Assembly: GCF_044704955.1 (NCBI RefSeq)
Contig: NW_027254627.1
Span: 1 to 64,000, forward strand
Length of the DNA: 64,000 nt
Reading direction: 5' to 3'
Source of the DNA: Pristiophorus japonicus
Lineage: Eukaryota
The stretch's first letter is position 1, and every line of letters starts with the position of its first letter. Shown in pieces: positions 35,636-39,567 of this stretch. The position numbers were made by a program, and so were the translations under genes. The notes beneath the pieces are model-generated. The model saw only the letters and a list, made by a program, of their open reading frames with translations. It was not told the origin of the DNA and did no database searches.

Positions 35636-36583
35636 ATGGAAGGAGAGCTCGGCCATGTGATATGCTCCTCCTGTACCATGTGGGAACTCGGGGACACTTC
35701 CGGTGTCCCTGGGCGCTACGTGTGTGGGAAGTGTATCCGCCTCGAGCTCTTGACGGTCCGCGTTGCGGAATTGGAGCTGAGGGTGGATTCACTCTGGAGC
35801 ATCCACGATGCTGAGAATGACGTGAGTATCACGTGTAGTGAGTTGGTCTTACCGCAGGAGAAGGGTCCACAGCCAGATAGGGAATGGAAGACCAGCAGGA
35901 AGAGCAGCGCAAGAAAGATAGTGCAAGGGTCCCCTGTGGTCATCCCCCTGCAAAATAGATACACCGCTTTGGGTACTGTTGAGGGGGATGACTCATCAGG
36001 AGAGGGCAGCAGCAGCCAAGTTCATGGCACCGTGGCTGGCTCTGCTGCACAGGAGGGCAGGAAAAAGAGTGGGAGAGCTATAGTGATAGAGGATTCGATG
36101 GTGAGGGGAATAGATAGGCGTTTCTGCGGACGCAACCGAGACTCCAGGATGGTATGTTGCCTCCCTGGTGCAAGGGTCAAGGATGTCTCGGAGCGGGTGC
36201 AGGACATTCTGAAATGGGAGGGAGAACAGCCAGTTGTCGTGGTGCACATTGGTACCAACGACATAGGTAAAAAAAGGGATGAGGTCCTACGAAACGAATT
36301 TAAGGAGCTAGGAGCTAAATTAAAAAGTAGGACCTCAAAAGTAGTAATCTCGGGATTGCTACCAGTGCCACGTGCTAGTCAGAGTAGGAATCGCAGGATA
36401 GTGCAGATGAATACATGGCTTGAGCAGTGGTGCAGCAGGGAGGGATTCAAATTCTTGGGGCATTGGAACCGGTTCTGGGGGAGGTGGGACCAGTACAAAC
36501 CGGACGGACTGCACCTGGGCAGGACCGGAACCAATGTCCTAGGGGGAGTGTTTGCTAGTGCTGTTGGGGAGGAGTTAAACTAA
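35636..36583 (+). CDS. CR1 ORF1p: zinc finger/leucine zipper plus SGNH (GDSL-type) esterase-like domain
   Basis: CSSC...CGKC, heptad Leu repeat, (E)DS block, HIGTND and DGLH; 315 aa, open. Confidence 0.92.
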   Translation: MEGELGHVICSSCTMWELGDTSGVPGRYVCGKCIRLELLTVRVAELELRVDSLWSIHDAENDVSITCSELVLPQEKGPQPDREWKTSRKSSARKIVQGSPVVIPLQNRYTALGTVEGDDSSGEGSSSQVHGTVAGSAAQEGRKKSGRAIVIEDSMVRGIDRRFCGRNRDSRMVCCLPGARVKDVSERVQDILKWEGEQPVVVVHIGTNDIGKKRDEVLRNEFKELGAKLKSRTSKVVISGLLPVPRASQSRNRRIVQMNTWLEQWCSREGFKFLGHWNRFWGRWDQYKPDGLHLGRTGTNVLGGVFASAVGEELN

Positions 36584-36660
36584 TATTACAGGGGGATGGG
36601 AACCTATGCAGGGAGACAGAGGGAGACAAAAATGAGGCAAAAGCAAAAGACAGAAAGGAG

Positions 36661-39567
36661 ATGAGGAAAAGTGGAGGGCAGAGAAACCCAAGGCGAAGAA
36701 CAAAAAGGGCCACTGTACAGCAAAATTCTAAAAGGACAAAGGGTGTTAAAAAAGCAAGCCTGAAGGCTTTGTGTCTTAATGCAAGGAGTATCCGCAATAA
36801 GGTGGATGAATTAACTGTGCAAATAGATGTTAACAAATATGATGTGATTGGGATTACGGAGACGTGGCTCCAGGATGATCAGGGCTGGGAACTCAACATC
36901 CAGGGGTATTCAACATTCAGGAAGGATAGAATAAAAGGAAAAGGAGGTGGGGTAGCATTGCTGGTTAAAGAGGAGATTAATGCAATAGTTAGGAAAGACA
37001 TTAGCTTGGATGATGTGGAATCTATATGGGTAGAGCTGCAGAACACTAAAGGGCAAAAATCATTAGTGGGAGTTGTGTACAGACCTCCAAACAGTAGTAG
37101 TGATGTTGGGGAGGGCATCAAACAGGAAATTAGGAGTGCATGCAATAAAGGTGTAGCAGTTATAATGGGTGACTTTAATATGCACATAGATTGTGCCAGC
37201 CAAACTGGAAGCAATACGATGGAGGAGGATTTCCTGGAGTGCATAAGGGATGGTTTTCTAGACCAATATGTCGAGGAACCAACTAGGGGGAAGGCCATCT
37301 TAGACTGGGTGTTGTGTAATGAGAGAGGATTAATTAGCAATCTCATTGTGCGAGGCCCCTTGGGGAAGAGTGACCATAATATGGTGGAATTCTGCATTAG
37401 GATGGAGAATGAAACAGTTAATTCAGAGACCATGGTCCAGAACTTAAAAAAGGGTAACTTTGAAGGTATGAGGCATGAATTGGCTAAGATAGATTGGCTA
37501 ATGATACTTAAGGGGTTGACTGTGGATGGGCAATGGCAGACATTTAGAGACCGCATGGATGAATTACAACAATTGTACATTCCTGTCTGGCGTAAAAATA
37601 AAAAAGGGAAGGTGGCTCAACCGTGGCTATCTAGGGAAATCAGGGATAGTATTAAAGCCAAGGAAATGGCATACAAATTGGCCAGAAATAGCAGCGAACC
37701 TGGGGACTGGGAGAAATTTAGAACTCAGCAGAGGAGGACAAAGGGTTTGATTAGGGCAGGGAAAATGGAGTACGAGAAGAAGCTTGCAGGGAACATTAAG
37801 GCGGATTGCAAAAGTTTCTATAGGTATGTAAAGAGAAAAAGGTTAGTAAAGACAAACGTAGGTCCCCTGCAGTCAGAATCAGGGGAAGTCATAACGGGGA
37901 ACAAAGAAATGGCAGACCAATTGAACAAGTACTTTGGTTCAATATTCACTAAGGAGGACACAAACAACCTTCCGGATATAAAAGTGGTCAGAGGGTCTAA
38001 TAAGGAGGAGGAACTGAGGGAAATCTTTATTAGTCGGGAAATTGTGTTTGGGAAATTGATGGGATTGAAGGCCGATAAATCCCCAGGGCCTGATGGACTG
38101 CATCCCAGAGTACTTAAGGAGGTGGCCTTGGAAATAGCGGATGCATTGACAGTCATTTTCCAACATTCCATTGACTCTGGATCAGTTCCTATCGAGTGGA
38201 GGGTAGCCAATGTAACCCCACTTTTCAAAAAAGGAGGGAGAGAGAAAGCAGGGAATTATAAACCGGTCAGCCTGACCTCAGTAGTGGGTAAAATGATGGA
38301 ATCAATTATTAAGGATGTCATAGCAGCGCATTTGGAAAATGGTGACATGATAGGTCCAAGTCAGCATGGATTTGTGAAAGGGAGATCATGCTTGACAAAT
38401 CTTCTGGAATTTTTTGAGGATGTTTCCAATAAAGTGAACAAAGGAGTACCAGTTGATGTGGTATATTTGGACTTTCAGAAGGCTTTCGACAAGGTCCCAC
38501 ACAGGAGATTAATGTGCAAAGTTAAAGCACATGGGATTGGGGGTAGTGTGCTGACGTGGATTGAGAACTGGTTGTCAGACAGGAAGCAAAGAGTAGGAGT
38601 AAATGGGTACTTTTTGGAATGGCAGGCAGTGACTAGTGGGGTACCGCAGGGTTCTGTGCTGGGGCCCCAGTTGTTTACATTGTACATTAATGATTTAGAC
38701 GAGGGGATTAAATGTAGTATCTCCAAATTTGCGGATGACACTAAGTTGGGTGGCAGTGTGAGCTGCGAGGAGGATGCTATGAGGCTGCAGAGTGACTTGG
38801 ATAGGTTAGGTGAGTGGGCAAATGCGTGGCAGATGAAGTATAATGTGGATAAATGTGAGGTTATCCACTTTGGTGGTAAAAACAGAGAGACAGACTATTA
38901 TCTGAATGGTGACAGATTAGGAAAAGGGAAGGTGCAACGAGACCTGGGTGTCATGGTACATCAGTCATTGAAGGTTGGCATGCAGGTACAGCAGGCGGTT
39001 AAGAAAGCAAATGGCATGTTGGCCTTCATAGCGAGGGGATTTGAGTACAGGGGCAGGGAGGTGTTGCTACAGTTGTACAGGGCCTTGGTGAGGCCACACC
39101 TGGAGTATTGTGTACAGTTTTGGTCTCCTAACTTGAGGAAGGACATTCTTGCTATTGAGGGAGTGCAGCGAAGATTCACCAGACTGATTCCCGGGATGGT
39201 GGGACTGACCTATCAAGAAAGACTGGATCAACTGGGCTTGTATTCACTGGAGTTCAGAAGAGTGAGAGGGGACCTCATAGAAACGTTTAAAATTCTGATG
39301 GGTTTGGACAGGTTGGATGCAGGAAGAATGTTCCCAATGTTGGGGAAGTCCAGAACCAGGGGTCACAGTCTAAGGATAAGGGGTAAGCCATTTAGGACCG
39401 AGATAAGGAGAAACTTCTTCACCCAGAGAGTGGTGAACCTGTGGAATTCTCTACCACAGGAAGTAGTTGAGGCCAATTCACTAAATATATTCAAAAGGGA
39501 GTTAGATGAAGTCCTTACTACTCGGGGGATCAAGGGGTATGGCGTGAAAGCAGGAAGGGGGTACTGA
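36661..39567 (+). CDS. CR1 ORF2p: APE endonuclease plus reverse transcriptase
   Basis: 968 aa, open: [48 protein letters not shown]. The frame is open upstream to 36559 and overlaps the end of ORF1. Confidence 0.95.
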   Translation: MRKSGGQRNPRRRTKRATVQQNSKRTKGVKKASLKALCLNARSIRNKVDELTVQIDVNKYDVIGITETWLQDDQGWELNIQGYSTFRKDRIKGKGGGVALLVKEEINAIVRKDISLDDVESIWVELQNTKGQKSLVGVVYRPPNSSSDVGEGIKQEIRSACNKGVAVIMGDFNMHIDCASQTGSNTMEEDFLECIRDGFLDQYVEEPTRGKAILDWVLCNERGLISNLIVRGPLGKSDHNMVEFCIRMENETVNSETMVQNLKKGNFEGMRHELAKIDWLMILKGLTVDGQWQTFRDRMDELQQLYIPVWRKNKKGKVAQPWLSREIRDSIKAKEMAYKLARNSSEPGDWEKFRTQQRRTKGLIRAGKMEYEKKLAGNIKADCKSFYRYVKRKRLVKTNVGPLQSESGEVITGNKEMADQLNKYFGSIFTKEDTNNLPDIKVVRGSNKEEELREIFISREIVFGKLMGLKADKSPGPDGLHPRVLKEVALEIADALTVIFQHSIDSGSVPIEWRVANVTPLFKKGGREKAGNYKPVSLTSVVGKMMESIIKDVIAAHLENGDMIGPSQHGFVKGRSCLTNLLEFFEDVSNKVNKGVPVDVVYLDFQKAFDKVPHRRLMCKVKAHGIGGSVLTWIENWLSDRKQRVGVNGYFLEWQAVTSGVPQGSVLGPQLFTLYINDLDEGIKCSISKFADDTKLGGSVSCEEDAMRLQSDLDRLGEWANAWQMKYNVDKCEVIHFGGKNRETDYYLNGDRLGKGKVQRDLGVMVHQSLKVGMQVQQAVKKANGMLAFIARGFEYRGREVLLQLYRALVRPHLEYCVQFWSPNLRKDILAIEGVQRRFTRLIPGMVGLTYQERLDQLGLYSLEFRRVRGDLIETFKILMGLDRLDAGRMFPMLGKSRTRGHSLRIRGKPFRTEIRRNFFTQRVVNLWNSLPQEVVEANSLNIFKRELDEVLTTRGIKGYGVKAGRGY

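Follow-up and report, generated by a model that had tools for sequence, protein, structure and literature searches.

How long interspersed elements (LINEs) translate their second open reading frame (ORF2) is described as a long-standing open question in the passages of PMC3894237 used here. The bicistronic RNAs of SART1 and mammalian L1 give low ORF2 output, SART1 through stop–start coupling at UAAUG and L1 independently of an AUG, and both elements make a free ORF2 protein (ORF2p). A review figure legend (PMC5911963) states that TRE5-A and TRE3-A, L1-clade elements of Dictyostelium without long terminal repeats (non-LTR), need a −1 frameshift for ORF2, which gives a precedent for −1 frameshifting in a LINE. 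Retroviruses, LTR retrotransposons and nidoviruses, in the excerpts we drew on, end their first ORF with an in-phase X_XXY_YYZ heptamer and carry the polymerase ORF in the −1 frame. Here, we analyzed a 64,000-nucleotide (nt) stretch of Pristiophorus japonicus DNA (the window; contig NW_027254627.1, positions 1–64,000, forward strand), which contains an intact CR1 element with ORF1 ending in such a heptamer and ORF2 lying one base back. Comparison with its relatives makes it likely that CR1 ORF2 is made by programmed −1 frameshifting at the [U/G]_UUA_AAC that ends ORF1.

The ORF1–ORF2 junction and its heptamer

The element, its junction and two further copies in the window are laid out as follows (aa, amino acids; EN, endonuclease; RT, reverse transcriptase).

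~34880–39667, plus strand: intact LINE copy with 5′ monomer array, ORF1, ORF2 and microsatellite tail
34880–35475, plus strand: tandem array of about ten ~60-bp monomers with TATAAAA inside, the 5′ end of the element (self-BLAST, sequence)
35636–36583, plus strand: ORF1, 315 aa, SGNH/GDSL esterase, ending ...GEELN and a stop (Pfam, PDB match)
35936–35996, plus strand: stable local RNA hairpin within ORF1, at the P-L-x-N-R-Y motif (−30 kcal/mol, z −4.9)
36559–39567, plus strand: ORF2 frame, with EN from ~36772 and RT at ~38236–38895 (Pfam)
36574–36580, plus strand: slippery heptamer G_TTA_AAC; T_TTA_AAC in every outgroup lineage
36580–36771, plus strand: basic, low-complexity −1-frame linker, 64 codons between shift site and EN (sequence)
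36581–36583, plus strand: ORF1 stop codon, adjoining the heptamer on its 3′ side (sequence)
36591–36600, plus strand: conserved G5-N2-GG(G) motif, candidate stimulator, reading G-D-G in the −1 frame (lineage comparison)
36611–36623, plus strand: G-runs 3 and 4 of a proposed quadruplex, unconserved beyond subfamilies A, B, C and E
39568–39667, plus strand: 3′ untranslated region with (TTTCTATG)n microsatellite tail
16750–20219, plus strand: subfamily-B copy without in-frame AUG, frameshifted before EN; heptamer and stop at 17171–17180
10155–13876, minus strand: subfamily-C copy; rare variant G_TTA_AGC and stop at 12812–12821 (sequence)

By its domain layout, its tail and a near-identical junction in the CR1-labelled consensus ScyCan_CR1-1a, the window element is classed as an esterase-type CR1. 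Cysteine pairs (CxxC...CxxC, visible in alignment) open ORF1, followed by a coiled-coil-like part and an esterase matching Pfam PF13472 (E 3.7e-12); the match to PDB 4c1b, ‘ORF1-encoded protein’ (E 2e-29), stops 12 residues short of the terminus. The ORF2 frame (1002 aa) carries the APE endonuclease domains PF03372 and PF14529 and the RT domain PF00078. A microsatellite in place of poly(A), here reaching 39667, is what we take to be a CR1 feature. Canonical vertebrate CR1s (subgroup 7, ORF1 type IVB, PMC4120745; survey PMC13343379) are built alike in the passages available, with a zf/lz-like N-terminus and SGNH esterase in ORF1, APE and RT in ORF2 and a microsatellite 3′ tail, and the consensus sequences of PMC13343379 contain the junction motif.

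A preliminary description, made from the letters of the window, had proposed an esterase–EN–RT fusion at this junction, and its observations hold. ORF1 ends GAG GAG TTA AAC TAA with G_TTA_AAC in X_XXY_YYZ phase, the ORF2 frame is exactly −1 to it and open from 36559, and four G-runs (GGGGG-AT-GGG-N10-GGG-N7-GGG) follow, with G5 starting at 36591, exactly 10 nt past the heptamer. The layout recurs at 17171 (plus strand) and, as G_TTA_AGC, at 12821 (minus strand), and the nominal ORF2 ATG at 36661 reads AAT in the 17.2-kb copy. The three window copies belong to related subfamilies, so that their agreement by itself shows descent only; distant lineages are what lifts the case above chance.

Among 64 ORF1 homologues, the named ones mostly from cartilaginous fishes, 35 end in LN, one in IN and one in LNLNG, and those not ending in LN are mostly truncated or fused gene models. 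The terminal Asn is one of 32 invariant columns in 24 aligned ORF1 proteins (42–73% identity), in which the residues ahead of LN differ in sequence and number. The last two codons are TTA and AAC in all 27 hand-picked representatives, a set that is not independent (11 are selected F2 copies) and from which two anchored on the motif itself have to be discounted, leaving 25 non-circular cases. Other conserved Leu and Asn columns use two to five codons (e.g. Asn AAT 15, AAC 11), and TTA makes up 47 of 265 Leu codons element-wide. That TTA and AAC are fixed while these other codons vary points to a nucleotide-level signal. The codon ahead of TTA ends in T whether it encodes Ala, Ser, Cys, Val or Asp.

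Distant CR1s (~30% ORF1 identity) from metagenomes, whose label ‘amniote-type’ is our assumption, carry T_TTA_AAC and a stop in 8/8 loci with an in-frame ORF1 end; of the other loci in this set of 36, three are broken copies with TTTAAAC still visible and 25 lack the ORF1-end region. EN lies in the −1 frame in all five of the eight that have an EN match, and likewise in locus L122. A second, old family in the P. japonicus genome was gathered by protein rather than motif search; of its 30 loci, 20 carry TTTAAAC exactly, and the remainder show one-base variants or no call. Fixed-spacing patterns matched the genome 5,379 and 1,938 times, against 1 and 4 matches for the reversed controls. In the portion of the PMC13343379 supplement covered, the context was junction-like by eye for 11 of 12 TTTAAACTAG and six of eight TTTAAACTAA places, one of the three TTTAAACTGA places was viewed, and GTTAAACTAA fell in 5′ regions in 3/3 places; TTTAAAC and a stop stand at junction-like places in the AllMis, CroPor, AmiCal, AquCat, CalMil, LatCha, PriPec, HypSab, ScyCan, SquAca and PogVit consensuses. 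These counts concern motif-bearing places only and have no denominator of CR1 consensuses without the motif. We take the labels to denote alligator, crocodile, bowfin, elephant shark, coelacanth, sawfish, stingray, catshark, dogfish and bearded dragon, presumably spanning the jawed vertebrates. Scans of genome-contig and viral-contig collections found no relatives.

U_UUA_AAC ranks among the most shifty heptamers, and equine arteritis virus is documented to shift at G_UU(A), in the part of PMC5009743 covered. The junction keeps an in-phase X_XXY_YYZ heptamer at the nucleotide level, the window's G form being an exception of a documented type. As the signal of the family, G_UUA_AAC, put forward in the preliminary description, gives way to canonical U_UUA_AAC, the G form appearing derived in subfamilies A, B and C; the expectation that the heptamer phase would be conserved is borne out by T_TTA_AAC and a stop in the distant CR1s. 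On these sequence comparisons, we regard the element as an ordinary CR1 whose recoding-type junction is real and conserved over great distances.

The −1 linker and the start of ORF2

Eleven subfamily consensuses were built (A_G, A_T, B, C, D, E, F3a–d and F2; 4–47 copies each, with D, E and F3 gathered partly by motif search). The −1 linker, 50, 53, 64, 67, 68 or 80 codons long, is free of stops in 11/11, as had been anticipated, and the other two frames carry 1–8 and 2–10 stops. The first Met stands at codon 17, 27, 41 or 55, and none precedes EN in five of the 11 (B, E, F3a, F3b and F3d); a strictly conserved ORF2 AUG is thus not found. Counted from the heptamer, EN is in the −1 frame in 50/57 (A), 22/29 (B) and 25/29 (C) individual copies, the others carrying indels. 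Among the in-frame copies, a stop occurs within the first 62 codons in six (A), one (B) and two (C), and an in-frame AUG in 48, 7 and 24, so 15 of the 22 B copies have no AUG there. In the window copy, the linker AUGs at 36596, 36606 and 36632 are out of frame, and the first in-frame one, at 36661, is unconserved. Starting at the heptamer, the −1 frame of the downstream ORF is therefore open, and no AUG is required.

In the B and E consensuses, the first Met is codon 195, past the EN motifs LNARS, ITETW and VYRPP. The 131 EN codons ahead of it have ratios of nonsynonymous to synonymous differences (pN/pS) of 0.09 (B versus E) and 0.16 (B versus F3a); EN upstream of the first Met is under strong purifying selection in these subfamilies. 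With the heptamer kept letter for letter in distant relatives and ORF2 one base back, often without a start codon, the copying enzyme is likely made by slippage, and the comparative evidence gives good support to the idea of an esterase–EN–RT fusion by −1 frameshift.

In the mechanism we propose, tRNA-Leu and tRNA-Asn would slip jointly from UUA-AAC to xUU-AAA, CUA would be the next codon, and the transframe peptide would read ...EELN-LILQGDG. The predicted product is a minor fusion of 1310 aa (315 + 995 aa after the shift) beside abundant ORF1 protein (ORF1p). The adjacent stop codon perhaps helps shifting. As the element has no protease, any processing of the fusion would have to come from a host enzyme. 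Natural in-frame fusions were considered and rejected: of two longer protein matches, gene model P0065, which runs from the esterase through F-K-L into EN, is probably a mutated copy and so does not count as support for a fusion.

Alternatives and the stimulator

Several observations weigh against frameshifting. Some of them bear on termination–reinitiation, in which ribosomes would stop at the end of ORF1 and restart in the −1 frame at UAAUG, as in SART1, or at a non-AUG codon, as in L1, to give free ORF2p. UAAUG coupling has the same −1 geometry in the passages of PMC3894237, and an in-frame AUG overlaps the stop in L145 and L180, lies near it (two codons past the stop, or overlapping) in L122, L123, L125 and L136, and is at or near it in the ScyCan_CR1-1a and SquAca_CR1-17a/6c consensuses of the supplement portion covered. 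UAAUG or a near AUG occurs in six of 100 listed G_TTA_AGC copies versus one of 100 listed G_TTA_AAC copies; the heptamer-breaking G_TTA_AGC is itself six times as frequent as a neighboring-site control and includes a small UAAUG-bearing cluster. The linker has pN/pS of 0.46–1.75, so the codon constraint expected ahead of the first AUG does not show in the amino acids, and frame and stop absence alone are kept; an unconstrained peptide would also fit a flexible spacer. Independence from an AUG by itself fits L1 as well, whose ORF2 tolerates AUG loss in the excerpts we used. In addition, the G form that dominates this genome re-pairs poorly in the P site, no local RNA fold was found 3′ of the heptamer (z −0.87), and a frame-broken sub-lineage of five copies (see below) also spread, so that copy number is no proof of autonomy.

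Restart leaves unexplained, however, why the seven bases 5′ of the stop are synonymously fixed in elements ranging from shark-type to amniote-type. In most lineages, the stop is overlapped by ATA, ATT, AAA, AAT, GCT, GGT, GAC or GAT, so there is no common near-cognate start, and out-of-frame AUGs lie within 25 nt downstream. A conserved overlapping or adjacent stop–start of the SART1 type is absent in 11/11 own-genome consensuses and present only in some copies or lineages. Although SART1 shares the −1 geometry of CR1, the CR1 junction differs from SART1 and L1 in keeping a slippery heptamer, mostly without UAAUG. We therefore consider termination–reinitiation unlikely.

The stimulator is the weakest step of the frameshifting proposal. 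Unlike retroviral and nidovirus sites, the CR1 junction has no pseudoknot or stem-loop 5–9 nt downstream, and the quadruplex is unconserved; what is conserved is the candidate motif G5-N2-GG at +11. G occupies +11 to +15 in 21–25 of 25 hand-picked lineage representatives and GG stands at +18/+19 in 24 of the 25, and this conservation covers synonymous positions of the −1 frame too. At the arterivirus nsp2 site, a C-rich motif 10 nt downstream is bound by nsp1beta/PCBP (PMC7618472, in the sections covered). In both cases, a short motif without structure follows the shift site at a constant spacing of 10 nt, which is a lead for CR1 and not a test; the CR1 motif is G-rich instead of C-rich. Action of this motif without a local fold, as a candidate protein-binding site, is the likeliest candidate for the stimulator, at somewhat under an even chance.

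A special case of frameshifting, proposed in the preliminary description, is that a three-tier RNA G-quadruplex (G4) specifically drives it. Four G-runs with loops of at most 12 nt are present in 44/47 A_G, 32/32 A_T, 24/29 B, 24/28 C and 9/14 E copies, and in the consensus of each of these five groups; the motif is the only one of its kind in the coding part of the window copy (G4Hunter 1.33), and synthetic G4s reach ~7% −1 frameshifting at most in the passages of PMC3919603, which give a spacer optimum of 6–8 nt. Yet the pattern is missing in D (0/4), F3a–d (0/32) and all eight amniote-type loci with downstream sequence, and nearly so in F2 (1/17). Loops of 10 and 7 nt are needed, so that no copy of A–E keeps to the usual limit of 7 nt, the spacer is 10 nt, and ViennaRNA with G4s enabled left the motif unfolded. 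We reject a G4 as the stimulator of the family; that it specifically drives the shift is improbable, and a contribution confined to A, B, C and E hardly less so.

A long-range duplex between the G motif and ORF1 (35941–35956) was also set aside, with a low chance of being real. The best or near-best partner of the motif lies 640–680 nt upstream in many lineages, and at 22 of 30 loci it ranks within the top 5% of ORF1 windows; against shuffled queries, p ≤ 0.015 was reached in only six of the 30, three of them from one clade. Only 32 nt from the partner site lies a perfect local complement to it, and the element holds four other perfect long-range inverted pairs of at least 10 nt. We dropped the duplex because the upstream site forms the stronger local hairpin at 35936–35996, with compensatory changes (two pairs among 11 sequences; kept in subfamilies A–E; 0/200 shuffles as stable), which explains the apparent complement to the G motif. 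Counterparts of this hairpin lie at L187:1780–1842, L214:1783–1845 and L157:2080–2142 (minus strand). In F2 and F3 copies, a strong hairpin of other sequence often forms at this position (z down to −6), and amniote-type copies are weak there (z −0.4 to −2.1); a consensus fold over all 21 hairpin segments gave no structure. The 3′ arm repeats AGGGGGATG, which follows the slip site in A, B and C.

Least probable, to a degree that makes it remote, is that ORF2 comes from a separate or altered RNA (by splicing, an internal promoter or polymerase slippage at the T/A run) with the LN-stop ending kept for protein reasons: CR1s without ORF1 do exist (PMC13343379, in part), but protein constraint cannot fix the TTA and AAC codons or the T at the wobble base before them, the match to the 4c1b esterase stops short of the last 12 residues, and contigs of four runs showed no heptamer indel and no GT..AG joint, a weak result as these are contigs only and their RNA status is guessed.

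Subfamily history and implications

For the own-genome comparisons, 120 loci were fetched, L002, L091 and L092 being duplicates of L001. Exact 30-letter genome matches numbered 22,651 for G_TTA_AAC, 4,541 for T_TTA_AAC, 151 for G_TTA_AGC and 25 for the control G_TTA_GAC. The first heptamer base is T in every outgroup (D, E, F3, F2, amniote-type, and runs X2 and X3) and G in subfamilies A, B and C; from this distribution, we take canonical U_UUA_AAC to be ancestral and the arterivirus-like G form to be derived and dominant in this genome. The T-bearing A_T is the youngest group (median 99.2% to consensus), is closest to A_G (0 synonymous ORF1 differences) and nests inside A in a copy tree that is rough, noisy and without support values. 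The simplest history would be a change from U to G and back to U in a young sub-lineage. As pN/pS of EN between G-type subfamilies is 0.17–0.26, the G-type lineages appear to have kept making ORF2.

G_TTA_AGC was considered as an active counter-example lineage and rejected, being mostly scattered over the subfamilies of the same rough tree and amounting to 0.67% of the G form. In one cluster (L067, L090 and L221), the broken heptamer G_TTA_AGC is accompanied by a stop overlapping an in-frame AUG (UAAUG), a possible switch to stop–start coupling.

Subfamily C is chimeric, joining an A/B-type ORF1 and junction to an F3c-type linker tail and EN (window 10155–13876, minus strand; L253, L257 and L260), and D is the reverse mix of a distant ORF1 and an A-like EN. 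The linker thus looks like a point of module exchange between subfamilies. Five copies on different contigs (L102, L103, L106, L108 and L192) have in common 22–29 sense-strand A-to-G changes, 51–142 nt past the ORF1 stop and nearly all in the linker, suggestive of ADAR-like hyper-editing of one founder. EN is out of frame in all five through G-run length changes, so this lineage probably spread in trans.

Elsewhere in the window, a further CR1 copy (42207–43229, plus strand; 43225–45496, minus strand) has its 5′ part inverted relative to the ORF2 part and lacks the ORF1/ORF2 junction. Several ORF fragments from other retroelements (RT, RNase H, integrase and protease-like by Pfam) occur at 22727–24340 (minus), 27802–29414 (plus) and 33164–34873 (minus), with more pieces at 51104–52111, 58328–59512 and 62500–63894 (all minus). 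Two long open frames have no Pfam match: 212–1801 (plus), which is unexplained, and 44239–45267 (minus), inside the inverted CR1 copy. Among the proteins, P0007, a CR1 ORF1 homologue (60% identity), is recorded on a 4-kb contig as an SGNH hydrolase of Pseudomonas aeruginosa and is probably vertebrate contamination.

CR1 frameshifting was undescribed in the titles and abstract openings returned by full-text searches on CR1/LINE ORF2 translation, a coverage that excludes the original chicken/turtle CR1, Kapitonov and Jurka 2003 and SART1 papers. The words ‘frameshift’ and ‘overlap’ are absent from the main texts of PMC4120745 and PMC13343379 as far as covered, whose passages leave ORF2 translation unaddressed, and the first 300,000 characters of PMC5009743 contain no mention of CR1. 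The Dictyostelium elements differ from CR1 in clade and host and in having no esterase, and the likeness rests on the wording of the review legend.

A wider reading, which we hold only tentatively and think doubtful as a whole, is that the entire vertebrate esterase-CR1 clade, from cartilaginous fishes to amniotes, makes its RT as a −1 ORF1–ORF2 fusion at a slippery site that, on divergence times, would be more than 400 million years old. Shifting would be triggered by an unstructured, protein-bound G-rich motif (bound by a host factor or ORF1p), lineages would tune RT dosage by switching the first base from U to G to U, and a small sub-lineage may be giving up the slip site in favor of restart at UAAUG.

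CR1s are a major vertebrate LINE family, and the conserved slip site makes the mechanism testable by a short reporter, for which the slip-site alleles U, G and AGC, with their genome-wide copy counts, form a natural series. If the G5 motif is a protein-bound stimulator, a non-viral case would join a short list. If the fusion is made, ORF2p would carry an N-terminal esterase proposed to target membranes, and it would be an error to annotate ORF2 from the first AUG onward.

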